Below, in pieces: positions 6,786 through 36,765 of a stretch of DNA of 64,000 bases. Source of the stretch: Planctomycetota bacterium (GTDB taxonomy: Bacteria; Planctomycetota; UBA1135; UBA2386); contig OZ245838.1 in the NCBI GenBank assembly GCA_965228735.1, positions 1,888,001 to 1,952,000 of the forward strand. The letters run 5' to 3'. Position 1 is the first letter of the stretch. Every line of letters begins with the position of its first letter. A program made the position numbers and the translations under genes. The notes beneath the pieces were generated by a model. The model had not been told where the DNA came from. It searched no databases and saw nothing but the letters and a program-made list of their open reading frames with translations.

Positions 6786-6787
6786 GG

Positions 6788-7252: not shown

Positions 7253-7260
7253 CGACCGAG

Positions 7261-8058: not shown

Positions 8059-8059
8059 T

Positions 8060-10581: not shown

Positions 10582-10582
10582 G

Positions 10583-10828: not shown

Positions 10829-10831
10829 GCC

Positions 10832-17644: not shown

Positions 17645-17897
17645 CAGCGCGCCCCCTCGAGGTCCGCGACCTCACCCCCGAGCGCGACGATCAGCTCCGC
17701 CTCGCTCAGCCCGACCGGCAACCGGCCGCGGCGGACCCCTCCCAGTCCCACCTGACCACGGCGTGCGATGTTGTCCACAGCCGTTCGCCCGCGCTCGCCG
17801 CGCGAACGGATTTCGTAAGCACCCGTCTGAGTCCCGAGGCCTTCCTCGGTACTATCTACGTCGCGGCTACGCCCCGACTTCGCATATGGCGAGGTGC

Positions 17898-17927
17898 GGG
17901 TTCGATTCCCGCCGCCTCCACCATTCT
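17898..17927 (+). repeat. att core copy 1 (tmRNA/ssrA-type 3' end)
   Basis: GGGTTCGATTCCCGCCGCCTCCACCATTCT: T-arm, Ala-type acceptor strand and CCA; exact 30-bp repeat at 34080-34109. Confidence 0.9.
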
Positions 17928-17945
17928 CAGTTTGCTCACCGAAAC

Positions 17946-17974
17946 TCACCGGGGCGCGCAGAGCGCCCCGGTGA
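17946..17974. terminator. Hairpin between att and integrase 3' end
   Basis: TCACCGGGGCGC-GCAGA-GCGCCCCGGTGA, perfect 12-bp stem. Confidence 0.6.
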
Positions 17975-17989
17975 ACTAGGTTACGAGCA

Positions 17990-19306
17990 CTACCCGGCGC
18001 TGCGCTCGCGCACCGACCCGCTCTGAGGATCACCCGTGCGCTGAGAATATGGTCGACTATTTGGTCGGCTCTCGGAGTCCGGGATCAGCCCCTCCACCGT
18101 CGCGATCGCGGCCGGGATCTCATTGATGAACTGCCGTAGCTTGGCGGCGTCCGTGCGCCGGTAGTGCTTGCGGGTGACCCCACCGGGGGTGTGGCGGAGG
18201 ATCGCGGCGACGATCCCGTCCGGCACCGCCTCGTCGAGCGCGTTCGCAAGCGACGTGCGCATGGCGTGCAGGTCGAGGCGCCGCCCGGCGTGATCGACAA
18301 CCGGCAGCTTGGCCCACTTCGCATCGTCCCGGATCCTCGCGGCGAGGTGGCGCGGCAGCGTCGGGTAGCCGCTCGGGTCGGGGTAGCCGACGACCAGCTC
18401 GTCATCGTGGACCGGCTTGCCGGCCTGGACACCGCGGTGTCGACGAACGTCGCGCAGCAGGTCGCGCAGTCCATCGTGCAGCGGCACCGACTGCTGCGTG
18501 CCGGTCTTAGTGATCTCCGCCGGCAGGTCGATCGTCTCGTCGGAGATCATCCCCCACCGCAGGTTCGCCAGCTCGTTGTTGCGCAGCCCGGCCAGGAACG
18601 CGATGACGACCGTGAGCGCCCGGCGCCGCGCGATCTCCATGTGCTTCTCGATGTTCGCCGGCCGGGCCCGGCTCTGCAGCGTGCGCTGGATGGCCGCCTT
18701 CGCGAGCTGGTTGACGCCCTCGGGAGTCAGGGCCTGCCGGTGCTGGCGCTGCTCCGAGGGCGTCCTGCGCAACGCTACGACCGGGTTCTTGAGGGCGCGG
18801 TCACCCTCTTCGAGCCACCGGCCAAACTGCTTCAGGAGGGACGCGTATTCGTTCCTCGTCTTGACCGTGGCGCCGCCGTCCAGAAGGCCGTTCAGGAAGC
18901 GCGTCGCCCGGTCGAGAGTCACGTCCGCAATCGACGTCGCGCGCATCCGCTTGAACGCCTTCTTCAATCGCGCGGTGACGAGCTTGACGTGCTTGTCACC
19001 CTGCTTGCGCACGCGCCGGCGAAGACCGGACCGCACGTGCTCGATGAAGTCGTCGAGGTGCTCGTCGATCGGGCGCTCGCGTTGCTCTGCGTGTGGGTCA
19101 AAGAGACCGGCAGCTTTCTTGTCGTAGTCCGCCTTCGCCGCACGCAGAAACGTGTTGGCGGCAGTCTTCGTCTTGAACCCCTCGCGCTTGGACCAGGGGT
19201 TCCGTTTGTGCCGGTTCTCGTAGCGCCGGAACTTGACCGTGAACGGCCCACGCCCCTTTGCCGGGAAGATCGAGCCGTTCCAGTCTTTGCCCGAGGAGAG
19301 CGTCAT
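17990..19306 (-). CDS. int: Tyrosine integrase
   Basis: AGLRNNEL, TKTG, LHAMRTS, ILRH, KHY catalytic set; adjacent to att. Confidence 0.92.
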   Translation of the reverse strand: MTLSSGKDWNGSIFPAKGRGPFTVKFRRYENRHKRNPWSKREGFKTKTAANTFLRAAKADYDKKAAGLFDPHAEQRERPIDEHLDDFIEHVRSGLRRRVRKQGDKHVKLVTARLKKAFKRMRATSIADVTLDRATRFLNGLLDGGATVKTRNEYASLLKQFGRWLEEGDRALKNPVVALRRTPSEQRQHRQALTPEGVNQLAKAAIQRTLQSRARPANIEKHMEIARRRALTVVIAFLAGLRNNELANLRWGMISDETIDLPAEITKTGTQQSVPLHDGLRDLLRDVRRHRGVQAGKPVHDDELVVGYPDPSGYPTLPRHLAARIRDDAKWAKLPVVDHAGRRLDLHAMRTSLANALDEAVPDGIVAAILRHTPGGVTRKHYRRTDAAKLRQFINEIPAAIATVEGLIPDSESRPNSRPYSQRTGDPQSGSVRERSAG

Positions 19307-19608
19307 GAGGCGCTCCTGGCCCGAGTCACCTTCGCCTTGACTTGCGCGCGCCAGTCGCGGCCGAGGCGCTCGGCGACGATCGCAGCCCAGTCCTGGCAGT
19401 TCGCGTAGGCCTCGACCTCGCGGGCGATGAACTGCGTCTTGCGGCCCTCGCCGTCGCCCCTCGTGGACGGCACGGTGATGCGCGGCGGGAAGTCACCGCG
19501 GGCCTCGAACTCGCGGACCGTGTTCGGACTCAGCCCCGTCACATGCGCCGCCTCGGCCAACGAGAAGCGGAACTTGGGGAGATCGATCGAGGACTTCTTC
19601 GCCTTCAT
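19303..19608 (-). CDS. AlpA/excisionase-like HTH protein
   Basis: SLAEAAHVTGLSPNTV......GDFP.RI...FIAREVEAY; start uncertain (ORF open to 19767). Confidence 0.75.
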   Translation of the reverse strand: MKAKKSSIDLPKFRFSLAEAAHVTGLSPNTVREFEARGDFPPRITVPSTRGDGEGRKTQFIAREVEAYANCQDWAAIVAERLGRDWRAQVKAKVTRARSAS

Positions 19609-19770
19609 CTTCGGCACGAGGGCCACCTTGCGCGACTGCGCGGCTGCGGTCCGGCGCCGAGCTACCCGGCGCGCTGGGAACGCACGCGGCGACCGTGCCG
19701 CATGCAGTCCACCATCTATTCCGCGCCGCGGGAGAATTCCGCCGCATGTTGATCGGTGCGCTTGCATGAC

Positions 19771-20751
19771 TCACACCTCCAGGATCGCCAGTGCCCGCCG
19801 CCGCTCGGTCGCTTGGCGATCGATGTATACCTGCGCCGCGCTCAACGACTTCCAACCACCGGTCGCCATCAGGGTCGCGATCGACCCCTGCCCCGCGACG
19901 AAGGTCGCTGCCGAATGCCGCAGCCCGTGCGGGCGCACGATCGTCTTGATGCCCGCCTCCTTTGCCCTGGCGCGCACCATGCGGCGCACGCCCTCGGCTC
20001 CGATCGCCGTGATCGCGTTCGTCGGGGCCGCCGCGTCGAGGCGCTGGAACAGCGGGCCGGCGACGTTCCCGCGGTAGGTGAACCACCGGCGCAACGAGTC
20101 GGCGCAGCCCTTGCTGATGAGGACGCGCTGCCGCTCCCGCTGCCCCTTCCGCTTCGCCAGGACGACCGGACCATCGGGGTGGTCGAGCTGCACGTGGCGG
20201 CGCAGCAGGCTCGTGACCTCGGATACGCGCAACGCCGCGGTGTAGAGCAGGCGAAGGATCGCCGCGTTCCGCTTGGCCAGCGGGGAGCCGTTGTCGGCGT
20301 CCTGGTCGAGGCGCTCGATCATCCGCTCGACGTCACCGCGGTGCGGGCCGCTGCGATCCTCCCGGGGTTCAACGCGCGGGGCGACCTGTTCCAGCCGCCA
20401 CGTGATGAGCCCAGCACGCCGACAGGCCTTGACCAGGGACGCGACGCCGCTGACCCGCAGCTTCGCCGTCGCGGTCGACTTGCCGGCGTCGAGCAAGTGA
20501 TCTCGCCAGTCCCCGACAAGCGCATGGGCTTTGCCGGCGCCGGCGGTGACGAGCAGTTCGAGCGCGCGCTCGGGCGGCGCTTCGGTGTCGGACAACGCCC
20601 AGCCCGCGAACGCGCGCATCGACCGCGTGTAGGACCGCGCGCTCTCGGGTGAGAGGGCAGCGAGCCAACGGCGAATGATTTCCTGTGGCGTCGTGTCGAT
20701 CGCCGCGAGCGCGGCAGGCGTCAGACCCGTCGACTTCGGAACGAGGCTCAC
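19771..20751 (-). CDS. Second tyrosine recombinase (XerC/D-like)
   Basis: ALRVSEV, KRKG, PHGLRHSAAT, GGWKS...VY. Confidence 0.9.
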   Translation of the reverse strand: MSLVPKSTGLTPAALAAIDTTPQEIIRRWLAALSPESARSYTRSMRAFAGWALSDTEAPPERALELLVTAGAGKAHALVGDWRDHLLDAGKSTATAKLRVSGVASLVKACRRAGLITWRLEQVAPRVEPREDRSGPHRGDVERMIERLDQDADNGSPLAKRNAAILRLLYTAALRVSEVTSLLRRHVQLDHPDGPVVLAKRKGQRERQRVLISKGCADSLRRWFTYRGNVAGPLFQRLDAAAPTNAITAIGAEGVRRMVRARAKEAGIKTIVRPHGLRHSAATFVAGQGSIATLMATGGWKSLSAAQVYIDRQATERRRALAILEV

Positions 20752-21209
20752 GACTCACCTCCCGGCAGGGCGTGGAACGACTCGTCCGCGAAGCTGAAGA
20801 ACCGACCGTCGCCGATCACGAGGTGGTCCAACACCGGGATGCCGAGCAGGTCGCCGACCTCGCGCAGACGGCGAGTGACACCTCGATCATCGGCGCTCGG
20901 TTCTGGATCCCCGGACGGATGGTTGTGCGCGATGACGATCGCGGTTGCTGCGAGGGCGACAGCAGGACCGAAGACTTCGCGCGGATGCGCGGGCGACGCG
21001 TCGGCCGTGCCGACGTGCGCATCGTGAACCGCGATCGCCCGGTGTCGAGCGTCGAGGTAGACAGCCGCGAATCGCTCGCGCGGGTCGTCGCGCAGAAACT
21101 CCTGCAGCAGGCCGACCACGTCGCCGGCGCGACGCACAGCGTAGGGCTGCTGCGCTCGTTCGCGGACGAGAGACAGGCGCACGCGGCGCCACGTGCGACG
21201 CTCCTTCAC
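20748..21209 (-). CDS. RadC-like JAB domain protein
   Basis: HPREVF, AHNHPSGDPEPSADD, GIPVLDHLVIG. Confidence 0.9.
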   Translation of the reverse strand: MKERRTWRRVRLSLVRERAQQPYAVRRAGDVVGLLQEFLRDDPRERFAAVYLDARHRAIAVHDAHVGTADASPAHPREVFGPAVALAATAIVIAHNHPSGDPEPSADDRGVTRRLREVGDLLGIPVLDHLVIGDGRFFSFADESFHALPGGES

Positions 21210-21472
21210 TGCTGCACCTCCGCGAGCTGCGCGTCGATCGACTCGACCTCGGCCATCGCGCGGGCCCGCAGCTCGGCGAGCAAGCGCGGCAGGCCCTTCG
21301 TGCTCTGGGCGATGAGGATTCCGCGCTGCTCGCGAATAGCGAACGTCGCGTAGTCGACCGCAGCACGGAGCGTGCCAATGTAGACGCTCGTGAGATCGTG
21401 GCCGGTGGCTGCGGCGGCGATGACGGTCCGGTGAGTCGACTTCGAGAGGTCGACATTCTTCGTCTTGGTCAT
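21206..21472 (-). CDS. Hypothetical protein
   Basis: 88 aa, AAGGAAG RBS, coupled to the RadC-like gene. Confidence 0.6.
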   Translation of the reverse strand: MTKTKNVDLSKSTHRTVIAAAATGHDLTSVYIGTLRAAVDYATFAIREQRGILIAQSTKGLPRLLAELRARAMAEVESIDAQLAEVQQ

Positions 21473-21703
21473 GGTGCTTCCTTGGTCAGGAGCACCGAGA
21501 CACGGCGCACGGGCGCCGCGGAGCTAGGTTCGCCGGACGATCGTCCGAACGCACATCTGCGGGAGCCGACAGGACGCCCGCATCACCACCGTGCCGCTCC
21601 AGGCCGGTTGGTCGTCAACTCGCAGTTGACATCTCGATGCGCTGCCGAGGTTACCGCGCCCTTCGGAGAGTACAAGGCGGTAGCGCCCGCCTGGCGGAAG
21701 TGG

Positions 21704-22204
21704 CTACGGCTTCTTCGCGGCGTGAGCTTCCATGTCCTGGCGAAGTTGCTCCCGGACTGCGACGCTGCGCTTGTTGAGGAACAGCAGTTTCCCCAAGCGG
21801 TCCGCGATCAACTTCTTCTTGACCGGGAACATGAGCTTGCCGGATTGCTCTTCGATCGTCCCCGACCGCAGCTCTCCCATCAGCTCCGTCACCTGATGCC
21901 GGATCATCATCGCCGCTTGGAATGCGTCGTTGCCTTCGTTGGCTAGCAATGCGCGCTGTCCAGCCCGCTCTGCAAGCTCCGTCATCCCGATCACAGTGAG
22001 GCCGCGATCTTCATGGGTCTCATAGATCTCAGCAGCTGGCTTCCCGGCGGCCAAGTCTGCCTCGATAGCGAGGACCAACTCTTGCGCTGCTTCGGCTGCG
22101 ACGATCGCTGCATCAATAGGGTTCTCCGGCATCCACCCTGATTGCCCTGGCCGGGCGACACAGGCCGCAAGAAGGATCGGGAACGTCAAGAGCAACCAAC
22201 GCAT
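21704..22204 (-). CDS. Hypothetical lipoprotein
   Basis: MRWLLLTFPILLAAC lipobox; lower GC. Confidence 0.55.
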   Translation of the reverse strand: MRWLLLTFPILLAACVARPGQSGWMPENPIDAAIVAAEAAQELVLAIEADLAAGKPAAEIYETHEDRGLTVIGMTELAERAGQRALLANEGNDAFQAAMMIRHQVTELMGELRSGTIEEQSGKLMFPVKKKLIADRLGKLLFLNKRSVAVREQLRQDMEAHAAKKP

Positions 22205-22385
22205 GAGCCCAAGAAGATCGGCGCCACCGTTGCCCCGCAATCGAAACCGCCCATTTCAAACGAGGCCCGATACGGTCGCCGTCGAAGAGAAGACCAGATG
22301 TCATGAAGGGCGTGCTGATCGTGATCGGCGTGATCTTTCTGTTCAACCTCGCCCGCGGCTGCAGCAGGTAGCCCCCCTTAGACCC

Positions 22386-23048
22386 TCACTGACTCGCTCT
22401 TCGCTCGTCTCGCTCGGCACGAAGCTGGATGAACTGCCGGATCGAGTCCGCCAACTTGAACCACTCACCTCGGACGCGGTGCTCGGCGAACGCGTCGTGC
22501 AAGAGGCTCTCTGTCTCCCGAGTGCCTCGGAACGAATAGAGCACCTCAAGGGACTCGCTCGGGTTGTCGGTCATCATCTGCCCGAGACGGGCCTTCACGC
22601 TGCGCGCGAGACCGATCTTCACGAGGTCGGTCGAAGTGTCCGCAATGAAGTAGATGAAGCCCGGTTTGTGCAGCCGGGATCCCTGGCCGCGTTGCCGACG
22701 GAGACGATCCCGGCGCTCCATCAGTTCCGTTTCGCGTTCGAGCAGGTCAAGCCCGCGCTTCCCGTCCAGGATCGGGGCGAGGAGGTTGATCAGCTCGCGG
22801 AGGCGCATGTGGTGCGCCGGCGGCCGGCTGCCGTTCTCGGTGCCCAAGATGGCCTGCTCCTCGCGCATCAGGACGCCGTCGGCATGTGCCTCCTCGGGCG
22901 TGTCGCGGGATGAACCGACCACTGTCTTCCCCGCGATGACCGCCCAGCCGCGATACTTGTAGCCATCCTTCCGGCGAAGGCGCTGAACGTAGGGCGGCAG
23001 CTTGGCGCCGTCTCCCAGGTCCGAGCTGCCGTTCTCGGAGTCGCTCAT
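22386..23048 (-). CDS. GIY-YIG (T5orf172/MUG113-like) protein with AP2-like N-terminal domain
   Basis: GFIYFI...VKIG...R...E..LH..F...R.RGEWF; N-terminal YRGWAVI.GK......DTPEEAH. Confidence 0.75.
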   Translation of the reverse strand: MSDSENGSSDLGDGAKLPPYVQRLRRKDGYKYRGWAVIAGKTVVGSSRDTPEEAHADGVLMREEQAILGTENGSRPPAHHMRLRELINLLAPILDGKRGLDLLERETELMERRDRLRRQRGQGSRLHKPGFIYFIADTSTDLVKIGLARSVKARLGQMMTDNPSESLEVLYSFRGTRETESLLHDAFAEHRVRGEWFKLADSIRQFIQLRAERDERRASQ

Positions 23049-23336
23049 GCGGCACAGCCTACGCGAAGCGCGCGCAGCGCCGACCCGAGCAGTTCTATGC
23101 ACGCAGCCCGACTCAGATCACCGCGGAATTCCATCGCCGCGCGGCATAGGTTCCGCGCCGGCAGCGATCCCACATCGCGGAAAAAAGTTCGCGGCCGCGT
23201 TTCGTGAGAGCGGTCGAGCAATGGGTTTTGAAGAGCCGACTTACGTGATACCACTGTCTACCCAAGTGTCTACTGTGCGGTAGTTTAGAGGACTGCGTCC
23301 GTCGACCCTCGGCTCCAACGGCATAGATGGTAGGCC

Positions 23337-23621
23337 ATGCCACTATCGACTCCGAACGAGCCATCACCGGCCGTCCAAGAGCTACGCCTCCGCCTCGAAG
23401 CCGGACAGCTTGAACCCGTCGGCGCTGTCATCGAGCGCGTCCTCGGCGAAGCCATCTCGGGCGTCACCCTGGCCCGCTGGTGCGAGGTCGGCCGAGCCGG
23501 CATCCGAATCCCCACCGTGCGCGGCGCGCGCCTGAAGCGCCTGACGACGGAGAGCGCCTTCCGCCACTGGCTCTCGGTGACGAGCGACCTCGTCGAGGAG
23601 GAGGGCTGCGACGATGCGTGA
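23337..23621 (+). CDS. DUF1580-like winged-HTH protein
   Basis: TLARW...G..G.RIPT......TTE.A..W. Confidence 0.65.
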   Translation: MPLSTPNEPSPAVQELRLRLEAGQLEPVGAVIERVLGEAISGVTLARWCEVGRAGIRIPTVRGARLKRLTTESAFRHWLSVTSDLVEEEGCDDA

Positions 23622-23829
23622 GCACGAGGAGCTGCTCCACGTCGGTGACCTGGAGCCCGTCGAAGTCGTCGTCGAGCGCGTGATGGGTCACGTGGATCCG
23701 TTCCACCTTCGGCGCTGGATCGAGCACGGACGCGCCGGACGCATCGTGTTGCCGACCGTCGTCGAGGGTGGAGAGAGGATGACGACCGAGGCGGCCCTGC
23801 GCTCGTGGCGCGATGCAACGTCGGCCTGA
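23614..23829 (+). CDS. DUF1580-like protein, tandem paralog
   Basis: LRRW...GRAG...LPT..GG..TTEAALRSW. Confidence 0.6.
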   Translation: MREHEELLHVGDLEPVEVVVERVMGHVDPFHLRRWIEHGRAGRIVLPTVVEGGERMTTEAALRSWRDATSA

Positions 23830-23849
23830 AGGCGAAGAGGGAGACGGAG

Positions 23850-26015
23850 ATGACCGAGATCGACTACACGCAGACGGCAGAGGGGATCGAGATCCCCGAC
23901 CGCCTGAAGCAGCAGCACCGGTGGTGCCGGTGGAGTCTGCAGCGCAACGAGCAAGGGCGGATGACCAAGAAGCCCGACCGCTCGACCTCCGACGTGGAGG
24001 CGCTGTCGCCCTTCGAGCCGGGCGCGATGTCAGACACCCGAGGAATCGGGTTCGTTTTCACCGACGGTGTCGAGGACGACGAGGGCTGCACGCTCATCGC
24101 GATCGACATCGACGCGTGCCGCGTGCCGACGCGCAACGCGAACGACGAGTCAGGCGAGGACGCCGGGCAACTGACCGATTGGGGTCGTGAGGTCATCGAG
24201 ATGTGCGGCCACAGCTATACCGAGGTGTCGCCGTCGGGCACAGGGCTGCGCGTCTTCGTGTTCGTGCGCGCCCTCAACCGCGAGATCACCACGAAGATGC
24301 GCGCGCCCGGCGCAGCCGCGCCCGGTGTCGACAAGAACCCCGAGGTTCAGCTTTTCGGCGTTCACGGCGCGGCTCAATACGTGACCGTCACCGGGCAGCG
24401 CCTGCTCGCAACGTCGCCCGACATCCTCACGCTCGACAACCTCGACGAGCTGATCGCGCAGTATCGCCTCGACCAGGACTACAAGGAGCGCGGCGACGGG
24501 TCACTGCCCGAGGGCAATGGCGAGCGGCGAACGCTGGAGCAGATCGCGGAGCGGGTGCGGGACGCCTCCTGGAAGTGCGAGCACCTGCTGAAGGGCGATT
24601 GGGATCACGAGGATCTCGACTACGCCAGCCCGAGCGAAGGCTACGCCGCGATCGTTGGGTTCGTGCTGAAGGCCGCGAACGGGCACGGCGACCTCGCCCT
24701 CGACTTCCTGATGGACTTGCCCGTGTGGGCTGCGGGCACCGTGCGCGAGAGCGCCGACCCCGGCAAGTATGGGCGGCGAGCATGGGTCCACGGCGAGGTG
24801 TGCCGGCTCCACCAGGGCAATGCAGACCCTGACCCGGCGCGCGTGTTTGAGCCGCTCGGTGAGCTGCCGCCCGAGGAGCGTCCCCCGTCGCACAAGCGGG
24901 CGCGCATAGTCACGTTCGAGGAGTTTGACCGGAGCGTTCAACCCGAGCGATTCCTGATCGACGGTCTGCTCCCGCGCACGGGACTCGCGCAGTTCTTCGG
25001 CGACCCCGGCAGCGGCAAGACACCGTTTGCGATGAACGTCGCGCTCGCGGTCGCGCTCGGCGAGGCGCGGTTCTTCAACCGCGACGTCGACCACCACGGC
25101 AAGGTGCTCTACATGGTCGGCGAGGACGCCAACGGGCTGGGACACCGGTTGCGCGCGGAGCTGAATGCCCGAGGGCTAACCCGAACAGATCTCCAAGGCC
25201 GCCTGTTCCTCACGACTCAGCCCGGGCAGCTCTGCGACGAGGAGGACGCCGCGCGGTGGCGCGACGAGATCCACGCTTTCGGCGAGTTCGCGATGGTCGT
25301 GATCGACACGCAGTCGAGGAACTTCGGCGCCGGCAACGAGAACGACACGCAGGACATGACGCGCTTCGTGAACAACCTCGCGCGGCTCGCCGAGCAACTC
25401 CAGCTCCTGGTCGTCCTGGTTCACCACACGGGCCACAAGTCGAAGGAGCGCGCCCGCGGCAGCTCGGTGATGTTCGGCGCTCTCGACGCGTCCTACGAGG
25501 TCACGAAGGAGGAGATCGGCGACATCAAGGCGGTCGTCGCGAAGTCCACCAAGGCGAAGAATTGGGCTAACCCTTCGCCGCTGCGCGGGACGCTCGTGCC
25601 GGTCACGCTCGACATCGACGGCAAGGGGCGCCCAATCACCGCGATCACATTGAGCCAGAAGGCTCCAGAGGATCAGCCGCTCGGCGACCTCGTCGCGGCC
25701 GAGTTGGAGGACGACGCGGACCTGCGCGCCCTGCTGGCTTTCTTCGTCGGCAGCGAAGGGGAGTGGGTTTCTCGGGCGAAGGCGCGCTCGGTCACCCGAC
25801 TCAGCGATCACAAAGTGAAGGCCAAGACGAGGCGCCTCGTGGAAGTTGGGCTCCTGGAGATCATCGCCGAGAGCGCGACGCGGGGCCGTCAATACCGACT
25901 GCCGCAGGCTCCCAATTCCGAGGGTCAGAGGGGCTCTGAAGCTGGCGATTTCGGGCCGCCAGCTCAGTTGGAGCTGGCGATTTCACCAGCTAGCGCCAGC
26001 TCGGAGGGCCAGTGA
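23850..26015 (+). CDS. Primase-polymerase (NrS-1-like) fused to RepA/AAA_25 helicase
   Basis: IP..LK...W..W, GIGFVF, IDID, YTEVSPSGTGL; Walker A GDPGSGKT, VVIDT, VHHTG, RGSS. Confidence 0.88.
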   Translation: MTEIDYTQTAEGIEIPDRLKQQHRWCRWSLQRNEQGRMTKKPDRSTSDVEALSPFEPGAMSDTRGIGFVFTDGVEDDEGCTLIAIDIDACRVPTRNANDESGEDAGQLTDWGREVIEMCGHSYTEVSPSGTGLRVFVFVRALNREITTKMRAPGAAAPGVDKNPEVQLFGVHGAAQYVTVTGQRLLATSPDILTLDNLDELIAQYRLDQDYKERGDGSLPEGNGERRTLEQIAERVRDASWKCEHLLKGDWDHEDLDYASPSEGYAAIVGFVLKAANGHGDLALDFLMDLPVWAAGTVRESADPGKYGRRAWVHGEVCRLHQGNADPDPARVFEPLGELPPEERPPSHKRARIVTFEEFDRSVQPERFLIDGLLPRTGLAQFFGDPGSGKTPFAMNVALAVALGEARFFNRDVDHHGKVLYMVGEDANGLGHRLRAELNARGLTRTDLQGRLFLTTQPGQLCDEEDAARWRDEIHAFGEFAMVVIDTQSRNFGAGNENDTQDMTRFVNNLARLAEQLQLLVVLVHHTGHKSKERARGSSVMFGALDASYEVTKEEIGDIKAVVAKSTKAKNWANPSPLRGTLVPVTLDIDGKGRPITAITLSQKAPEDQPLGDLVAAELEDDADLRALLAFFVGSEGEWVSRAKARSVTRLSDHKVKAKTRRLVEVGLLEIIAESATRGRQYRLPQAPNSEGQRGSEAGDFGPPAQLELAISPASASSEGQ

Positions 26016-26138
26016 TGCAAGTCGCGGGAAACACGTACTTTAAGCTGGCGACACACAACCGCCAGCTAACCGCCAGCCATAGCTGGCGGGCTGGTGTGCC
26101 CCTTATAGAGGGGCACCAGCTCCGCCAACCAGCTAGCG
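25939..26138. repeat. CCAGCT iteron cluster, putative satellite origin
   Basis: About a dozen CCAGCT/AGCTGG hexamers in both orientations around CCCC-TTATAGA-GGGG at the primase 3' end. Confidence 0.55.
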
Positions 26139-26634
26139 ACCTCGGACAACCCCACCCCTCCGGTGGCGAATCGCTGCAAAGCGAGCACGCGAAGAGGGCC
26201 ACTCGATCGCGATGCAGCGCGACGCGAGCGGATCGCCGCGAGCGATCCCCGCGCATCCGGTGTCGCCACTCTGGCGCCCGACGCATTAACCCGCAGGGCG
26301 CGCGCCCGGCAGCCCGAGCAACTTGGTCATGGGCTCCGGCCGCTGGCGCGCGGCCCTGCACTTCCTCTTTGGCGAGGCGCAGCCCGGACGGGGTGCTCCG
26401 TTTCCATCCCGCACGCGATCGGCTGGTCCCCGATCCGGTTGCCGGGCTGCGCCTCGCCTTCTTCTTCCGCGCTACGCCAGCGCGTGCTGCGCGATCTCGC
26501 GCCGAGGCACCCAGGAGAGGTTGCGACCAGCAGAGCCGCGCACAGCGACGCTCACGAATTCACAGCACCTATGTCTCGGCACGGCGCCGGTCGACCGCCC
26601 TCCGCGTGACAAAACTCAAGTTACCCAAAGCCCA

Positions 26635-27060
26635 ATGAACTCCGAACCAGTTCGCTTCGATCCTCTCGACTACCCCGTCGGGCACCACCTCGATCCGCAC
26701 ATCACCGGCCGGCCCCGTCCGCGTCCGGGTGAGGTCGAGTTCGATCTCGACACGCGTCGGTGCCCGCGGTGTCGGCCCGATCTCTTCCCGGGCGACGTCG
26801 CGCTCGCCGCGCCGGTCTGCTGCGACGGCCCTGCGATCATGCGGTTCGACCTTCGTGCGGCCCGCGCCTACCGCATCTGGCGGGGCTGGCCGACGGAGGA
26901 GGATGTCCTCGTGCTGGCGTTCGTCGTTGGCGACGAGCCCTATCCGAGCCGCCGCCGCGGCGCGCGGGAACCCATGGATGCGCAAGTCATCTGCGCGCTC
27001 GTCGCCGGCGACCCGGTGCCGACGGGCGCCAACATCACCGACTACCCGGCGCGCGCATAG
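26635..27060 (+). CDS. Hypothetical protein (CxxC, CC)
   Basis: ATG 26635 after an AT-richer stretch; GC-rich third positions. Confidence 0.55.
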   Translation: MNSEPVRFDPLDYPVGHHLDPHITGRPRPRPGEVEFDLDTRRCPRCRPDLFPGDVALAAPVCCDGPAIMRFDLRAARAYRIWRGWPTEEDVLVLAFVVGDEPYPSRRRGAREPMDAQVICALVAGDPVPTGANITDYPARA

Positions 27061-27099
27061 CCGCGGGCGCCATCAGCCACACAGCAACACGACAGAACT

Positions 27100-27888
27100 A
27101 TGACGACAGCAAATCTACAAGCCCGGCTCCGAGAGCGCGAGGCATCCCAGCGGCGCCAGAAGGCCGATCAGATCGCCCAGGCCCAGCGAACCTACTCCGA
27201 CCTCGTGATCGCCGCCTACCGCGGCGAGGTCACCAGCGAGGCCGACGTCGAGCAGCTCGAAGCAGCGATGGCCGTGCTCGATCTGGCGCCCCACAACTTC
27301 GACGAAGACGTCGCTGCCCTCGCGGTGCTGAAGCAGACCCGCGACAACGTCTCGGTCGCCCAGGCCGGCGAAGCCGTCGAAGCCGCCCGCGGAGCGGAGA
27401 CCGACGGCAGAAGGCGCGCGAAGCAGATGCGCGAAGAAGCCGACCAACTCGAACGGGCGCTCGCCGCAGACGTCGGAACCGCCAAGGCCGGGGTCCGGGA
27501 GACGCGCGCGAAGCTCGCGTATGCCGATCGCCTCGTAGCCACCCTCAGCGAGCACGGCGTCGTCGTCCCGGCCGATGCGCAACCGGTGACGACGGCGACC
27601 GAACGTGTGCCGCACCGCGTCATCGAGGTCGCCCAGATCGACAACTGCCTGCACGAGCCGGGCGCGGTCGTCTTGTGGCCCGCGGGCGAGCCGCACGCCT
27701 GCCTCCAACCCATCGAGCCGGGTCGCGAGGGCGACCCGTGGGTGCCTCCTCCCGCGCCGCCGTTGCCGCCCACGAGCAGCTCGGTGCTGGCGGAAGCACG
27801 CCGCGACGTCGAGGCCGCCCTCGTGCGCGGTGAACCGGTCCTGCCGAATGTCTTTGGCGGCTTGCCGAAGTCCGAGGAGGAGAAGTAG
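27100..27888 (+). CDS. Hypothetical coiled-coil protein
   Basis: 262 aa, helical Ala/Glu/Arg-rich, 2 nt before the scaffold-like gene. Confidence 0.7.
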   Translation: MTTANLQARLREREASQRRQKADQIAQAQRTYSDLVIAAYRGEVTSEADVEQLEAAMAVLDLAPHNFDEDVAALAVLKQTRDNVSVAQAGEAVEAARGAETDGRRRAKQMREEADQLERALAADVGTAKAGVRETRAKLAYADRLVATLSEHGVVVPADAQPVTTATERVPHRVIEVAQIDNCLHEPGAVVLWPAGEPHACLQPIEPGREGDPWVPPPAPPLPPTSSSVLAEARRDVEAALVRGEPVLPNVFGGLPKSEEEK

Positions 27889-27890
27889 AG

Positions 27891-28514
27891 ATGACTGACC
27901 AAGAACTCACGCTCGCGCAGCGCATGTTCGGTCGTCCTGAGGGTGCCCAGGACGCTGCACCCGACGATGCCCTCGTGCCCGACACCGCGAAGGACGACGC
28001 GCCAGAGGAGCGCAGCGTGGCATCAAGGATGTTCGCGAAGCAGGAGCCAGTCGATTCCAACGACACCGAGGACGCCGAGGGCACCGACGACCCCGGTGAT
28101 GAAACCCCGGGCGACGTTGACGATGAGCAGTCGGGGTTCCGCCGTCGCTATCAACTGCAGGTCGAGGGCACCGAAGTCGACCCGCGGATGAACGACACGA
28201 TCCTGGACGCAGCCCACGAGGCCGGCATGAGCCAGGACGCCACGGAGAAGTTCGTCGAGAACATCGCGCCGCGACTGATCGCCGAGCATCAGGCGCAGGC
28301 TCGAGCGCGATTCAACGAGTGGACAGAAGCGACGAAGTCGGACGCCGAGATCGGCGGCGCTCGCCTCGACGAATCCATCGGTGTCGCCAAGCGCACCCTC
28401 GACGCCGTCAAAGTCTCGCCCGAGTTCCGCCAGTTCATCTTCGACTCGGGCCTCGGGAATCACCCGGACTTCGTTCGCCTCTTGGTCCGGGCCGGCAAGC
28501 GCATGGGGGTTTGA
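27891..28514 (+). CDS. Satellite scaffold-like protein, homolog of 679-1371
   Basis: SDAEIGGARL.ES...A.R.L...DSGLGNHP..VR....GK aligns with helper NDPEFGGDNL.SN...RAL...TGLGSN...AG. Confidence 0.8.
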   Translation: MTDQELTLAQRMFGRPEGAQDAAPDDALVPDTAKDDAPEERSVASRMFAKQEPVDSNDTEDAEGTDDPGDETPGDVDDEQSGFRRRYQLQVEGTEVDPRMNDTILDAAHEAGMSQDATEKFVENIAPRLIAEHQAQARARFNEWTEATKSDAEIGGARLDESIGVAKRTLDAVKVSPEFRQFIFDSGLGNHPDFVRLLVRAGKRMGV

Positions 28515-28516
28515 TC

Positions 28517-28891
28517 ATGCCCAAGAAGAATTCCAAGGGATCCGATCCGCCGCAGCAGATCGCGCTCTCGGGAAACCGCGCAAAGGACGGCAAGTTCCTT
28601 CCGGGTCATAGCCTCCCAGGCCCCGGACGGCTGCGCGGCTACGACCCTGTGAAGGCGGCGGTCGCGGCGTGCGAGCGCAACGGCACGACGCTCGAACACG
28701 AGCTTGGCGAAGTCTTGTTCACGCTCATCTCGCTGGCCAAGAAGGGCGACGTCGCCGCTGCACGCGAAGTCCTGAGCCGCACAACCGCTGACATGAAGTG
28801 GACCGCATCGAATGACGGGAAGTTCACGGTGACGGTCGTCAACACCGGCGTACCAACCGGGAACGACCAGATCGAGGAACTGCTCTCATGA
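28517..28891 (+). CDS. Putative terminase small subunit
   Basis: RAKDGKFLPGHS.PGPGR, AKKGDVAAA; ATGA-coupled to TerL. Confidence 0.65.
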   Translation: MPKKNSKGSDPPQQIALSGNRAKDGKFLPGHSLPGPGRLRGYDPVKAAVAACERNGTTLEHELGEVLFTLISLAKKGDVAAAREVLSRTTADMKWTASNDGKFTVTVVNTGVPTGNDQIEELLS

Positions 28892-30285
28892 AACCACCAC
28901 CGCAGATCGATCTCGGCTACCTACCACGCGACTGGCAGCGTGAGTGCCACCAGCTCAAGCGCAAGAACCGGTTCGCGGTGCTGGCGCTCCACCGCCGCGC
29001 CGGCAAGACGCTCTGGGCGTTGATGGAACTCGTCCATGCGGCGCTGCAGTTCGACAAGGAGCTGGGCCTGTTCTTCTTCGTCGCCCCGACCCTGAAGCAG
29101 GCGAAGGCGATCGCGTGGCGCGAGCTGAAGCGCATCCTCGAACCACTCCGAATCGCCGGCCTCGTTGAGATCCGGGAGACGGAGTTGACAGTCGAGTTCA
29201 AGCACAACGGCGCGCGCATCTCGCTGTTCGGCGCCGACAACCCGGACGCCATGCGTGGCGTTCGCCTCGATGGCGTCGTCATCGACGAGGTCGGCCACGT
29301 TCCACCGGACACCTGGTTCTCGATCCTCCAGCCGACGTTGTCCGACCGGCTCGGGTGGGCAGTGTTCATCGGGACGCCGAATGGGATCAACCTCTTCAGC
29401 GAGTTGTTCTTCAAGGCGACGGACGAGGACGAGTGGCACGCTGGTCGCTACACGGTGAGCGAGACACAGGCCCTCGACGCCAAGGAGGTCGAACGCCTCC
29501 GGCGCGACATGCCAGACACCGCGTTCGCCCGCGAGTATCTCTGCGACTTCTCGGCCGGCGGTGAAGACCAACTGATCTCGCTGTCCGACGTCGAATCCGC
29601 CGCGCAGCGTGAGTGGACAGAGCGCGAGGTCGCCGGTGCGCCGCGCATCCTCGGTGTCGACGTCGCCCGATTCGGTTCGGACCGCAGCGTCGTCATCAAG
29701 CGCCAGGGCCTGCACACCTGGAAGCCGATCGTCTACAAGGACGTCGACCTGATGACGCTCGCGAGCGCGGTGGCGAGCATCATCCAGCAGTGGCGCCCGG
29801 ACGCCGTGTTCGTCGACTCAGGCGGCGTTGGTGCCGGACTGGTGGACCGACTGCGGCAGCTCCACTTCGACGTGCATGAGGTCAACTCGTCGAGCAAGGC
29901 CGGCAAGCCGGACGCGTTCACGAACCGACGTGCAGAGTGCTGGTCTGCGATGGCCGACTGGGTCCGCGGCGGCGGGTCGATCCCGAACGACACCGCGTTG
30001 AAGCAGGAGCTGGCAACGCCCGTCTACTCGTTCGACGCGAGCGGCCGGAAGAAGCTCGAATCGAAGGACGACATCAAGAAGCGCCTCGGTGGCGGTAGCC
30101 CCGACACCGCGGATGCACTCGCGCTCACGTTCGCGAGCCCAGTGACACCAGCCACCGAGGTCGACCGCGTCCTGGAACAGTTCGACGTCCACCGTCCGCG
30201 TGCGAAGACGTATGGCGACCACGACCCCTTCGCGGTCCTCGACGAGGTCGAGAAGAGCCACGATCCGTTCGCCTGGAGGCGCTGA
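28888..30285 (+). CDS. terL: Terminase large subunit (satellite)
   Basis: HRRAGKT, VVIDEVG, FIGTPNG, F.REY.CDF, LGVDVARFGSD, SPDTADALALTFA. Confidence 0.93.
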   Translation: MKPPPQIDLGYLPRDWQRECHQLKRKNRFAVLALHRRAGKTLWALMELVHAALQFDKELGLFFFVAPTLKQAKAIAWRELKRILEPLRIAGLVEIRETELTVEFKHNGARISLFGADNPDAMRGVRLDGVVIDEVGHVPPDTWFSILQPTLSDRLGWAVFIGTPNGINLFSELFFKATDEDEWHAGRYTVSETQALDAKEVERLRRDMPDTAFAREYLCDFSAGGEDQLISLSDVESAAQREWTEREVAGAPRILGVDVARFGSDRSVVIKRQGLHTWKPIVYKDVDLMTLASAVASIIQQWRPDAVFVDSGGVGAGLVDRLRQLHFDVHEVNSSSKAGKPDAFTNRRAECWSAMADWVRGGGSIPNDTALKQELATPVYSFDASGRKKLESKDDIKKRLGGGSPDTADALALTFASPVTPATEVDRVLEQFDVHRPRAKTYGDHDPFAVLDEVEKSHDPFAWRR

Positions 30286-30484
30286 TCGCTTTCATGCTGT
30301 GCTCCCTCACCAACGGAGAGCGCGGTTCCCGGTTGGATCCTCCGAAAGAAAAACTGCGGGTGGGAACGCTTCCTAGCGCATAGACGCAGACGGCGTTGCA
30401 ACGAATCGTGCAACGCAGTTCACCCTGCGCATTTTTGAATCATGAAGCGAACATTGGTGTGGGCACAGACGTCCAGAGCGAGCA

Positions 30485-31045
30485 ATGCCAACTCCAACGA
30501 AAGTCCCCGAACGATACTGGACCACCTGCTGGGCGACCCTCAGGTTGCGGAGCATCAAGTGGTGCACCAAGTTCGGATTCCCCTACCCCTGTGGCCTGAT
30601 TCGATTCACGATCCGATTGCCATACCCTTGCCGAAAAACACGAATGGTCGATGGCTGGTGCTATCACTGCCAACCTCTTGAGACACGCGGCTCGGGTTTG
30701 TTCCGTTGCCGGCAAGAATGCTGCGAGAACGGAGTCCTCTACGAGCGTTCGATCTGGTGTGCCGGAGGGCGCCTCCGGAAACTCGTTGCAGACCTTTGCG
30801 TCAAGGACAAGCTCTCCTCCGCAGGTTCCTGTGGCTCACCTAACAGCGGTCCCACCACGTTCGAAGAAGCACTGGAGAAGGCGCCGATGCCGGTTGAATC
30901 TCGAGCGACCCGCGGACTTGGTGACATCGTCGAAAAGATCATCCGATTCATGACGCTCGGATTGGTCGAGCCGTGCGCTGCCTGCAAGACACGGCAGGCT
31001 CTACTGAACAGGCTGTGGCCCTTCAGACGCATGAGGCCAGCCTGA
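30485..31045 (+). CDS. Cys-rich hypothetical protein
   Basis: C-terminal GLGDIV...C..C..RQ..LN motif; start uncertain; low GC. Confidence 0.45.
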   Translation: MPTPTKVPERYWTTCWATLRLRSIKWCTKFGFPYPCGLIRFTIRLPYPCRKTRMVDGWCYHCQPLETRGSGLFRCRQECCENGVLYERSIWCAGGRLRKLVADLCVKDKLSSAGSCGSPNSGPTTFEEALEKAPMPVESRATRGLGDIVEKIIRFMTLGLVEPCAACKTRQALLNRLWPFRRMRPA

Positions 31046-31304
31046 AAAGAGCGGGGCGTTCGCCGATGCGATGCAGGAACAGCGGCGGGCTGCGCTACGC
31101 GCGCCCGCCGACCAGGCGAAAGCAAGCATCCCGCCTAGCGTCACGATGCGGCGACCGCGCGCCGGATCTACGAGACGTCTACCCACGTCGACCGCGCGGA
31201 GGCACGGGCCGCGTGGCTCGAAGCGGCCGAGGACTTGAGGTGGTGCGGTGCGGCGATCGCGGAGTGCAGCACCACATGTTCACTCCCGGTGCTACGATCG
31301 TCTA

Positions 31305-31979
31305 ATGGGCACCAACAAGGAGCAGCGAGGGACCGACTATGACCTGGACAAAAGGTTCGAGAACTACTGCTTCTTGAGACTTTGCATGATCGATCTCAGC
31401 GCCGCGAAGCGCCGCGTTGCGCAGTTAGAACCGCTGAAAGACGACAGCGTTCGCATCCCCCTGCTTGAGAACGTTGTGGTCGTCTACGCCCGCCCGTTCT
31501 CGGGGAACAAGGGGAGAGTGCAAGGCAAGCACCGCCTGCCGAAGTCGCACATACCGAGCGATTCTCTGGATCTGCATCGAGAGCTAATCGCACTTCGAAA
31601 CGAGCTGTTCGCCCACAGCGATGCGACGTTCCACGACCCGGTGGTCATGCGAAACATCGGGCCGCCGGAAGCACCATTGCATCCAGTGCGGTTTCGGGTC
31701 GCCGACTTCCAGAGTCTGTCGACGCGGATTCCTGACCTTCGAACGCTGTTCGAAGGTGTCGAGGCTATTGTACGAAGGGCAGTAGACGCGGCCCATCGAG
31801 ACCCTTGGTTCGCCGATGCGGCGAAAGCGGGGAAGCTCGAACACACGATTCACATGGGCTCGTTCAACTTTGCTGGAAAGGGCCCGGGCACCTACACCAC
31901 TCCCTATCTTGTAGACATGGGGGCGACGACTGAGGTCGCGCGAGATTCGTCGGCAGAAGATGATGAGGCGAGCGAGTAG
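31305..31979 (+). CDS. HEPN-like hypothetical protein
   Basis: LH..L..LRNELFAH (Rx5H) in a helical protein. Confidence 0.6.
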   Translation: MGTNKEQRGTDYDLDKRFENYCFLRLCMIDLSAAKRRVAQLEPLKDDSVRIPLLENVVVVYARPFSGNKGRVQGKHRLPKSHIPSDSLDLHRELIALRNELFAHSDATFHDPVVMRNIGPPEAPLHPVRFRVADFQSLSTRIPDLRTLFEGVEAIVRRAVDAAHRDPWFADAAKAGKLEHTIHMGSFNFAGKGPGTYTTPYLVDMGATTEVARDSSAEDDEASE

Positions 31980-31987
31980 CGACGCGC

Positions 31988-33256
31988 TTATTCCGAGGCA
32001 AAGAGGTTGGGCAGGTCTGCGGCCTGCTCGCGTGCTTCGTCAGACAGCTCTAGTAGCGCGACTACGTCGTAGGCCCTGCCCCCGGCCGCCGTTGAGTTCG
32101 TCGCCACCACGATGCCCCTCTTGGTGTCGGAGTTGACGACGGCAGAAACGAGAACCGCGCCGGCAAACTTGATTCGCTCGCCGCGAGGTTCGTCGCTGTA
32201 CACGAAGACATACGCACAGTCGTTCGTGATCCACCTGAAGTACTGCACCGACCCGTCCTCCGCGTCGCGAGCAGCCCGGTGCATCAGCTTGCCCATTTCA
32301 ATTCGACGGGACCGAGTCAGGTCAGACAGGAGAACAATTGCCGCGGCCACATCAGCTTTGGTTCCGGCTTCGTTCCACTCTTGCTCAGGGTCTCGCTCGT
32401 GCATTCGAGCGATCACGTCGTCGACCAACAGCCCATACTGCCGATCCGGAGAGTCTCGCAACTCGCCAGAGAGGAGTGAGTGGGCGTGGCCCATCGTCTT
32501 GCGCAGGATCTCGCCGTCGATATCGGGCCGGACGCGAACGAGCCAATCCGGGAGTTCGACCAACACCTGACTGACGAACGAGAACTCGTCATGCACGCGG
32601 GCGACGACGCCGGACAACACTAGGTCCTGGCGCAACCCCAGATACCAGAGCAGGTCACCCGCGGTGTCCATCCGCGTTGCAAGCTCGATGAAGTCTCGCA
32701 GCGACACCACGTGGACCGGGAACCCAACATCGGCCAGCTCCGGCTCCATCTCGCTCGCTACGAACGGTGTATCGTCCGGCATATCGATCACGATCAACCC
32801 GAACCGAACGGGGTAGCAGTCCGGATCGAAAGGCATTGGGCCGAGAGTGTCGCTCACGACCTCGGGAACAAGGCGCTCGCGCAGCATGCGCTCGCCATAG
32901 GTGACCTGCTTCAGTGCCTTCTTGAGGTTCTTCCGAGCCCAGCCCGTCCCTGCACGCTCGCCAGTCTGCGCCTTGCATTGCACGAAGAGCGCGGTGTCGT
33001 CGAAGAGCACGAGTCCATCTGCCAGCTCGCCCTTGCCCCCTTTTCCAGGCTGCTCGCGAAACACGAAGTCGCGAAAGAACGCTGCCTCCAGAAGCCAGTT
33101 CGTCAGCTTTTCTTCATACTTGCCGTCGGCACGCTCGGGCGGTGCCGACATGTTGAAGCGGCGCCACGGCTCCTCTTCGATGACCATTGGCCCATCGTGA
33201 CCCTCTTGCCAACCAGTGTCGATACCGGGGGGCATTTCGGTAGCCGTGCGACCCAA
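31988..33256 (-). CDS. NERD/PD-(D/E)xK-like nuclease domain protein
   Basis: GELADGLVLFDDTALFVQCKA...ALKQ; start uncertain. Confidence 0.6.
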   Translation of the reverse strand: MGRTATEMPPGIDTGWQEGHDGPMVIEEEPWRRFNMSAPPERADGKYEEKLTNWLLEAAFFRDFVFREQPGKGGKGELADGLVLFDDTALFVQCKAQTGERAGTGWARKNLKKALKQVTYGERMLRERLVPEVVSDTLGPMPFDPDCYPVRFGLIVIDMPDDTPFVASEMEPELADVGFPVHVVSLRDFIELATRMDTAGDLLWYLGLRQDLVLSGVVARVHDEFSFVSQVLVELPDWLVRVRPDIDGEILRKTMGHAHSLLSGELRDSPDRQYGLLVDDVIARMHERDPEQEWNEAGTKADVAAAIVLLSDLTRSRRIEMGKLMHRAARDAEDGSVQYFRWITNDCAYVFVYSDEPRGERIKFAGAVLVSAVVNSDTKRGIVVATNSTAAGGRAYDVVALLELSDEAREQAADLPNLFASE

Positions 33257-33268
33257 CGGTCTACGGCA

Positions 33269-33724
33269 TCATTCAAAGAGCAGGGGGCGCATCCGCGTGT
33301 AGAGACGCGTCAGCTCGTAGAGGCCGTCCCCGGATGCCCTTCTAAAGTCGGCGACGCCACCCTGGTCGTGGTCGGAATCGAACACGCTGTGCCAACCGGA
33401 TCGCTCGTCGACGATCACGGGTCCGGGCGCGTCTGAGAACTGGTCGGCCGTTATGTCGACGACCAAGTCGCCCCGCTGTAGCCACGAGTGGCACCACCAG
33501 TCTCCGCCGTAGGGCCTCTGACTGTTGACATACTCGAAACCGGAGATGCCGCTGTCCACGAGATACGCCCCAAGCAGCATCGTGGCATCGCCACACGCTC
33601 CGTGGGGGAAGTCGCGCATCTGAACCGGTAGCTGCGCGGGCGGCACCTCGGGAACCGTCTCGTCGAGCACGCGCCGCATCCGATGCGCGAGGTCCTCGAT
33701 CTGCTGTCGCTCAGGATCAGTCAC
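33269..33724 (-). CDS. Papain/transglutaminase-like Cys-His-Asp protein
   Basis: FPHGAC...HSWL...VVDITADQF; GTG start at 33724. Confidence 0.65.
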   Translation of the reverse strand: MTDPERQQIEDLAHRMRRVLDETVPEVPPAQLPVQMRDFPHGACGDATMLLGAYLVDSGISGFEYVNSQRPYGGDWWCHSWLQRGDLVVDITADQFSDAPGPVIVDERSGWHSVFDSDHDQGGVADFRRASGDGLYELTRLYTRMRPLLFE

Positions 33725-33725
33725 T

Positions 33726-33932
33726 TCACGGCCTGCGCGGATCGTAGAGCCGGGCAGCCTGCTCGTCGGCCGCCTTGACCCCGTCGGCGCCGCACTTCCG
33801 CATCCACGCCTCGTAGGCGGAGACGGCGTCGTGCATGAGCGGGTTCTCCTCGTCGGGCACCCGGTCAACGCCGATGCGGCGGGTCAGCTCGTCGAACGCC
33901 TCGATGTGCTCGGGACCGGTGTCGTTGGTCAT
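33726..33932 (-). CDS. Small hypothetical protein
   Basis: 68 aa, abuts the downstream gene. Confidence 0.45.
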   Translation of the reverse strand: MTNDTGPEHIEAFDELTRRIGVDRVPDEENPLMHDAVSAYEAWMRKCGADGVKAADEQAARLYDPRRP

Positions 33933-34079
33933 GCCCAAGGATTGTCGCGACGGCGCGATCGATCGCCACTCGGGGCCGCGATCTGGTCGGGGCGTCGATT
34001 TGGTCGACTATCTGGTCGGCTTTCGATCACCCGGTGTCGTAACGTCAAGCGCGCACGCGGCGTGCGGCAAGTCTGACCA

Positions 34080-34109
34080 GGGTTCGATTCCCGCCGCCTC
34101 CACCATTCT
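34080..34109 (+). repeat. att core copy 2 (attR of satellite)
   Basis: Exact repeat of 17898-17927. Confidence 0.9.
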
Positions 34110-36681: not shown

Positions 36682-36765
36682 CCCCTGCATGACCACGATC
36701 GCGGCAACCCCGGAGGCCGCCAGAACGGGAGTGCATGTCCAAGCTCGTGCGGTAAGGTCAAGGTC

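Follow-up and report, generated by a model that had tools for sequence, protein, structure and literature searches.

A 64,000-nucleotide stretch of a Planctomycetota bacterium genome (NCBI GenBank assembly GCA_965228735.1, contig OZ245838.1, positions 1,888,001 to 1,952,000; hereafter the window, whose coordinates are used unless stated otherwise) contains an integrated element, here termed island A, that combines an integrase and a primase-helicase with parts of a phage packaging machinery. As the original prediction for this DNA had claimed, the island is a 16,182-bp unit, this being the spacing of two exact copies of a 30-bp direct repeat on the forward strand that form its left (17898–17927) and right (34080–34109) attachment sites (att). 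The first 26 bases of the repeat (GGGTTCGATTCCCGCCGCCTCCACCATTCT) are the 3' end of the transfer-messenger RNA (tmRNA) gene, which lies 26 kb to the left of the window (genome coordinates 1861404–1861755); this 3' end, with 26 bp in common, is the sole further copy in the whole 7.19-Mb genome at up to four mismatches. The left site doubles as the right end of a neighbouring prophage. Contigs from two of four sequencing runs, which may derive from the source sample, span both island ends unbroken.

The packaging-related genes of island A lie together on the forward strand. They comprise CC, a 262-aa coiled-coil protein that is the hallmark of the island family described below (27100–27888), a 207-aa phrog_458 homolog read here as a scaffold (27891–28514; E 4e-30), a 124-aa TerS-like protein of the DUF5681 type (28517–28891), and a full-length TerL of 465 aa with two C-terminal DPF motifs (28888–30285; phrog_2, E 1e-51), whose start is overlapped by the TerS stop. 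Upstream on the same strand are two small DUF1580-like helix-turn-helix (HTH) genes (23337–23829; matches below the cut-off), a 736-aa primase-polymerase and AAA_25 helicase for replication (23805–26015; phrog_906, phrog_1829, AAA_25), and a 141-aa open reading frame (ORF) of no family (26635–27060), which is unlike the ~90-aa gene at the same position in two sister islands, B and C. The reverse strand carries a 438-aa tyrosine integrase with R-H-R-H-Y motifs present and 34% identity to the prophage integrase (17990–19306), a regulator (19303–19626), a second, XerC-like tyrosine recombinase, 53% identical to one in island C (19771–20751), a RadC/JAB protein (20748–21209) and a GIY-YIG-like (MUG113/T5orf172) protein (22386–23048). 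Cargo ORFs of 186, 243, 422, 199 and 68 aa, of lower GC and no known family, fill 30485–33932, and the four larger ones matched none of the PADLOC defence families. The predicted gene set was thus recovered for the integrase, primase-helicase, scaffold homolog, TerS-like gene and intact TerL, and the gene it had called AlpA-like is the HTH_17 excisionase/AlpA-like regulator: it matched phrog_66 (E 5e-6) and, below the cut-off, HTH_17 (E 3e-5), and not the AlpA family.

The further claim that capsid, portal, tail and lysis genes are lacking was also borne out. None of these families was found in 20 island ORFs scanned against Pfam and PHROGs or in 17 scanned against NCBIfam; the same scans found no holin or head-tail genes, and those against Pfam and PHROGs no Delta/Ogr activator. 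Hidden Markov models (HMMs) of BPP-1-type capsid and portal proteins retrieved nothing from six-frame island ORFs of at least 60 aa (best E 0.33 and 0.78), including the two stretches in which the original prediction had asked for hidden capsid or portal homology (26635–27888 and 30485–31045), and CC is neither. In the whole genome there is a single BPP-1-type capsid gene and a single portal gene, both inside the prophage to the left of the island.

The island TerL keeps the Walker A, Walker B and coupling motifs and three nuclease Asp motifs. Its nearest relatives are 53–64% identical at best (the closest 63–64%) and reside in full podoviruses. Gene neighbourhoods were inspected at 170 TerL loci (the best 80 of 349, the best 80 of 321 and the closest 10 of 26), among which 49 viral, 29 metagenomic and 5 genomic loci with at least 3 kb downstream were informative. 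A portal or capsid gene lies nearby in 81 of these 83 (49/49 viral, 29/29 metagenomic and 3/5 genomic), and the two remaining loci (L129 and L132) hold truncated, stranded TerLs of the island-TerL clade. A quick tree places the island TerL inside a podovirus TerL clade (SH-aLRT 99), adjoining the TerL of a prophage from the same host family (86), on a somewhat long end branch (0.6 vs a median of 0.43); the TerL of the left prophage falls in a distant clade. Of 50 distinct close TerL ends, 45 have a [DN]P[FYWL] motif among their final 25 residues, vs 14 of 402 host genes; the motif is also present on the island TerL (twice), on the prophage TerL and on all three TerL remnants of sister islands. 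Since the TerL of lambda docks on the portal via a C-terminal tether (PMC9026076, as far as its available text describes), this tail may by analogy bind the portal.

The TerS-like gene matched no PHROG or TerS family. A DUF5681-type TerS directly precedes an island-type TerL in 4 of 108 TerL loci, all in one phage lineage, and a DUF5681 protein is recorded in a phage in the accessible part of PMC8954984. That podovirus lineage (L027–L030) encodes the DUF5681-type TerS, TerL, a Bbp19-like protein, scaffold and capsid consecutively, with no portal between them; its TerL is without the DP[FY] tail and its scaffold without the usual end motif.

We infer the scaffold identity of the phrog_458 homolog, because PHROGs labels this family 'protease'. 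A 23-row alignment contains no invariant Ser, Cys or His (the nearest being the GLGNHP His and the SED Ser, each in 21 rows), so that the protease label, though it may still apply, is not supported. Searches returned only phage-type matches of 33–38% identity. Among 301 genomes of the order, five matched; the other four comprise three prophage scaffolds preceding a capsid gene and one weak, partial match (G270). Phage scaffolds terminate in an (RDF)xxAxxL[YF]-type motif (22 of 23, one truncated row dropped). The island protein ends before this motif (LLVRAGKRMGV, vs LLVRAGKAISED...AKSLYP in the phage) and instead bears two copies near its N-terminus, at residues 4–14 and 39–49, with the stretch ahead of the second aligning with the phage SEDxxV. 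These N-terminal copies and the SEDxxV-like stretch suggest that the island scaffold is a circular permutation of the phage scaffold. The best motif match falls within the first 50 residues in five of six island scaffolds (shuffle P 0.002–0.016). SaPI1 CpmB and the 80alpha scaffold have a common motif and compete (PMC12409344, in the portion available), and by analogy the scaffold end motif may bind the coat protein. The scaffold homolog and TerL are of podoviral (BPP-1/epsilon15-like) origin, in agreement with the podoviral link drawn by the original prediction.

CC is related among the islands (A vs B, z 10; A vs C, z 15; reached by none of 1000 shuffles), and members of its family came to light only via genome-wide HMM search. 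As a direct query it had no matches among 7,994 candidates, a three-row alignment recovered only one of its own rows, and none of 19 candidate stretches in viral contigs contained it. Iterated profiles matched 5, then 8, then 19 of the 91 genomes in the family (the last at E 0.01, with the weakest three doubtful), an eight-row profile retrieved nothing from a further 248 genomes of the order, and at phylum level 4 of 400 genomes matched. One profile match (G252) was a host gene and was set aside; those in G026, G029 and G399 and a second one in G446 lie outside the inspected set. Models of CC reached a pLDDT of 66 from the single sequence and 96 from 23 rows, with helices at residues 3–40, 47–60, 64–83 and 86–151, and the protein is confidently predicted to be a long helical hairpin-and-rod. 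Fold searches (Foldseek against PDB and viral structures, and VIA-align) found only generic coiled coils (best Z 7.0, none at E 0.001), and the best PDB sequence match was a designed coiled coil (E 0.002). Kinship with the P4 proteins Sid or Psu, raised by an Atlas lead to Psu (0.78), was unsupported, with hhalign probabilities of 0.08% for Sid and 0.17% for Psu; neither is among the listed fold-search matches, a non-listing that does not exclude them.

The window genome contains three further CC islands. Island B (tRNA-Ala, 7,516 bp, 47-bp repeat; genome coordinates 71007–78569) and island C (tRNA-Asp, 13,793 bp, 55-bp repeat; 5050562–5064409) both have the order CC, mini-scaffold (130 and 135 aa), DUF5681 TerS-like gene and a remnant of the TerL nuclease domain, and the same module order occurs in a genome of the same genus (island D). 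The integrases of A, B and C show no significant similarity to one another, and the replication genes differ as well, with a distinct Rep in C. The TerL remnants of B, C and D (182, 192 and 66 aa) are without ATPase and catalytic Asp residues but keep the tail motif; the remnants are 35–37% identical to the prophage TerL and have no significant match to the TerL of island A. After the 66-aa remnant, a 142-aa ORF (L183:9970–10398) likewise ends in a DPF tail. A fifth element, island E of a sister species (G001, contig C12, 162443–177314), occupies the tmRNA site over 14,844 bp and carries CC, scaffold, GNAT, portal and phrog_1482 TerS genes, with no TerL or capsid found; its integrase is 82% identical to that of the prophage in the window genome and its cargo is a ShosTA-like pair. 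The remaining CC island of the window genome, 17.4 kb at tRNA-Leu (1280414–1297798; family scan covering all but the last 3.8 kb), contains a Nu1-like TerS, CC, an S49 head protease, decoration-like and tape measure genes and a zinc finger; it would be a family member that targets a lambda-like siphovirus.

Inspection of 23 CC island loci, many on short contigs, found a DUF5681-type TerS with a scaffold or mini-scaffold in islands A, B and C, G002 and G117:C335, the DUF5681 pair without scaffold in one locus (G117:C250), a Nu1-like TerS (phrog_57) in ten, several of which also encode a head protease, decoration, tape measure or tail proteins, and a tape measure with TerS not in view in two. 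Tape measure genes occur in the CC islands L242, L241, L273 and L274, and G005 adds tail-tip genes (minor tail, J-like fibre). The small zinc-finger gene of some CC islands, which resembles Ogr/Delta, gave only generic zinc ribbons in Pfam. Among 145 selected CC-locus proteins no major-capsid family was matched, the one exception being the S49 protease, which aligned weakly and in part with a 'major head and protease' family. A full TerL accompanies CC only in island A. A profile of the TerS-like gene, built from 48 of 59 matches, matched 33 of the 91 family genomes and five places in the window genome, two of which are islands B and C. What stays constant in the family is CC, usually with a TerS; the other genes form a swappable cassette derived from the helper, consisting of mini-scaffold and dead TerL remnant, scaffold and portal, tape measure, or protease. 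The original prediction had defined a class by scaffold, TerS and TerL: the module order does recur in independent elements, but the exact set with a full TerL is found once, and the constant is CC, which had not been singled out. Island A is one copy of a wider, apparently undescribed satellite family.

Two further capsid-less terminase cassettes were seen. In G199:C398 (L187:1–6130), an integrase end, HTH, helicase, 209-aa ORF, intact TerL and DUF5681 gene are adjacent; this TerL is sister to that of a BPP-1-like podoviral prophage (support 100) and represents an independent capture, and no capsid, portal, scaffold or CC was detected on the contig, which cuts the left end. In G044:C30 (L116:8100–16400), a primase-like gene, small genes, TerS-like, TerL (phrog_2) and recombinase-like genes are found, with no capsid or portal seen. 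Clusters of ParB, methylase, TerS and TerL (G026, G091, G064 and G059) were rejected as family members, having another TerL clade and no CC. Such ParB/methylase-TerS-TerL clusters stand beside recombinases in L106, L108 and L109–L112, with head genes not in view, and G064 has 10 TerL matches, several as tandem pairs. In the window genome, an 80-kb mobile cluster (4707000–4786400) holds three more prophage-related integrases and two more DUF5681-type genes.

The prophage between the tmRNA gene and the island is a BPP-1-like element of 44,168 bp with portal (PF12236), capsid (PF20911), Bbp19-like and phrog_458 genes, the last with relatives in phiV10/epsilon15/Bordetella-type phages. Its right part occupies 1–17897 on the reverse strand, including scaffold (679–1371), portal (4752–6455), TerL (8060–9631) and TerS (9621–10304) genes; the capsid gene crosses the window start. 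Since the two elements agree in scaffold family and TerL tail, and the portal family fits too, this prophage could supply heads to the island. It had been put forward as the compatible helper, and is real and plausible in that role, but with its TerL in a distant clade, and with the sister remnants being the ones that resemble it, it is only a plausible helper and not the TerL donor; its fit with islands B and C is no worse than with island A. In these podoviruses TerLs of at least three clades occur on one portal family. The island/prophage size ratio is 0.37 (16.2/44.2 kb), and islands A, C and E have 0.31–0.37 of the helper genome size.

Taken together, island A is probably a PICI-like satellite (PICI, phage-inducible chromosomal island) of BPP-1/epsilon15-like podoviruses that excises and replicates itself, competes for helper coat and packages with its own terminase, and it likely spreads by taking over short-tailed phage heads. 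The integrase and excisionase-like gene would excise the island at the tmRNA-type att, and the primase-helicase would replicate the excised circle. The doubled N-terminal scaffold motif would then bind helper coat, as SaPI CpmB mimics the helper scaffold, probably with CC, and this competition could yield smaller heads. The TerS-TerL pair would recognize island DNA, load it into the heads and dock on the helper portal via the C-terminal DP[FY] tail; with docking through this common tail, a compatible helper TerL would therefore not be needed. In the sister islands, the TerL remnant with its tail kept might act as a portal decoy. Having a complete TerL is best regarded as one of the states that the swappable cassette can take. 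It is tentatively proposed, as a possibility somewhat short of even, that CC marks a previously undescribed satellite family with an exchangeable 'hijack cassette' copied from the particular helper in use. Island A would be a functional, motor-owning but capsid-less member that reshapes podovirus heads by means of a circularly permuted scaffold and packages its DNA with its own TerS-TerL, and its sisters would use a TerL tail decoy, their own portal or a tape measure.

Alternatively, island A could be a satellite whose TerL is a recent passenger or interference factor, with the island TerS and a helper TerL doing the packaging and the island TerL heading to the remnant state of B, C and D. A full TerL in just one of the four islands with the module, its long end branch and the stranded, truncated TerLs L129 and L132 of the same clade are in keeping with this. 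However, all catalytic motifs are intact even though the nearest relative is just 63–64% identical, the TerS stop overlaps the TerL start, and a second island (G199) has an independent intact TerL; moreover, the remnants come from another TerL clade and are therefore not decay products of the island TerL. This explanation is considered unlikely. It is very improbable that island A is a defective prophage, a podovirus remnant after loss of capsid, portal and tail. Its close TerL relatives do sit nearly all in full phages, and one phage lineage pairs this TerS type with this TerL type, the scaffold and capsid genes coming next. Yet phage loci with both genes put the scaffold downstream of TerL, and a scaffold within 3 kb upstream was found in none of the 170 loci, so that deletion alone cannot yield the island order; CC is in no phage locus examined, the two att sites are exact copies, the island and the prophage beside it have no DNA in common except the att and one 30-bp stretch, and the module recurs on unrelated backbones. 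Simple deletion is also unlikely because 81 of 83 relatives keep portal or capsid, and the original view of the island as satellite-like rather than a deletion remnant thus holds.

A further reading, regarded as quite improbable, is that of an anti-phage island whose scaffold mimic, CC and terminase parts sabotage podovirus heads, with spread by another route or only rarely. Satellite inhibitors of TerL exist, such as Gpi (10.1101/2024.04.22.590561, as far as its accessible text goes). The dead, tailed TerL remnants and the mostly-motif mini-scaffolds resemble decoys, and the ShosTA-like pair of island E would suit a defensive role. However, sabotage needs no intact motor, replication genes or TerS, and islands A, C and E have the helper-relative sizes that small-head packaging predicts. 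The satellite/helper size ratios of SaPIs and P4 fit such packaging.

Several observations weigh against the preferred reading of a motor-owning satellite. Neither a scaffold upstream nor a CC gene was seen at any of the 170 TerL loci, and the exact set of scaffold, TerS and full TerL is a singleton. No circle junction or empty-site joint was seen and depth was flat in contigs of 4 of 11 runs, although contigs drop rare forms. CC has no specific match, and profile and fold comparisons assigned it no function. Against the 'protease' annotation, a scaffold identity is supported by the location ahead of the capsid gene, a PF05396 match (E 0.011) and an Atlas lead (0.91; 16% of members carry PF05396). 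As to its motif, the second copies alone are not significant (P 0.06–0.13 in islands A, B and C), CC itself, used as a control protein, scored 7.8 in the motif test, the scaffold of the portal-bearing island is without the motif, and an N-terminal copy is also present in 4 of 23 phage scaffolds. For the two mini-scaffolds, in islands B and C, alignment with the island A scaffold is not significant (z 1.8 and -0.3), and the TerL remnants could be decay.

Island A shares with PICIs and Staphylococcus aureus pathogenicity islands (SaPIs), as described in the accessible part of PMC10085698, an integrase and primase-replicase together with the absence of tail and lysis genes; it also has a candidate regulator, a putative capsid-modifying gene and a TerS-like gene, and its size is about one third of the helper genome, as in these elements. 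Its scaffold homolog would correspond to the scaffold mimics set against the helper scaffold in SaPIs (CpmB, SaPIpT1028 Rcm; PMC12409344, in the portion available). Flanking att with an integrase and a primase-replicase are present, and portal, head-tail, tail and holin genes are absent, as in PICIs. In contrast, PICIs have no TerL of their own, and the full TerL of the island is a feature listed as specific to capsid-forming PICIs (cf-PICIs) in that part of PMC10085698; the capsid-modifying role would fall to the phrog_458 homolog with its scaffold-end motif, which is not a known PICI family. Further differences are a scaffold from the helper's own family in rearranged form, a podovirus helper and the CC gene. 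The host, too, is distinct: it is probably a member of the Planctomycetota, as a genome of its family carries DUF1501/1549/1553 genes, which mark that phylum, and the main text of PMC10085698 contains no mention of Planctomycetota. As in cf-PICIs, an integrase-primase backbone is combined in island A with a TerS and a TerL that belong to the element itself. As far as PMC10085698 describes them, however, cf-PICIs also bring capsid, portal and head-tail genes, so that tails are all they borrow, and none of these genes was found in the island.

More distant parallels can be drawn with other satellites. In P4 a long helical protein also heads the late operon (record X51522), but P4 is without a terminase and the hhalign comparison above lends no support to kinship of CC with Sid or Psu. 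The Vibrio cholerae satellite PLE (Gpi/GpsA/GpsB) likewise manipulates the packaging motor, though by inhibiting or redirecting the helper TerL, as far as described in 10.1101/2024.04.22.590561, whereas island A owns a TerL and its sisters own TerL-derived remnants. PICI-like tycheposons and VEIMEs are also integrative elements linked to tRNAs, in which the replication genes are modular and a TerS or capsid gene is present (10.1101/2020.12.28.424599; PMC9618062, in their accessible parts); they differ in bearing one or the other, and the VEIME paper presumes a helper TerL. Archaeal SRCE satellites with capsid, packaging ATPase or both offer a loose parallel (10.1101/2025.02.15.638363, in the part available). 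In line with the novelty originally claimed, searches of the open-access literature turned up no account of such a gene set, nor of satellites from this group of hosts, though the supplementary VEIME and tycheposon gene tables could hold TerL-bearing elements.

Described satellites either borrow the helper motor or bring a whole head. If the proposed reading is true, a motor-only satellite stands midway between PICIs, which bring just a TerS, and cf-PICIs, which bring a whole head, and would escape helper-terminase matching and could exploit more helpers. One genome holds a natural series (full TerL, dead TerL remnant and siphovirus-type cassette) beside one resident helper. The family also draws attention to two candidate interaction motifs of BPP-1/epsilon15-like phages, one at the scaffold end and the other being the DP[FY] tail of TerL. 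CC may serve as a marker for satellites that models forbidding portal or tail genes could partly reject.

Elsewhere in the window, an Rfam scan gave no matches. An IS256 copy, broken into two ORFs, lies to the right of the island (34283–35620); the element is multi-copy at about ten-fold depth, and its contigs differ from the window copy by 7 letters and one extra base. Beyond it, 35986–37752 contains a 231-aa ORF and a type II methyltransferase; its GC is lower, and it may be what is left of an earlier island at this site. Among the host genes are a 141-bp-period repeat protein gene at 42000–43900 and a 15-bp tandem repeat at 61410–61529.

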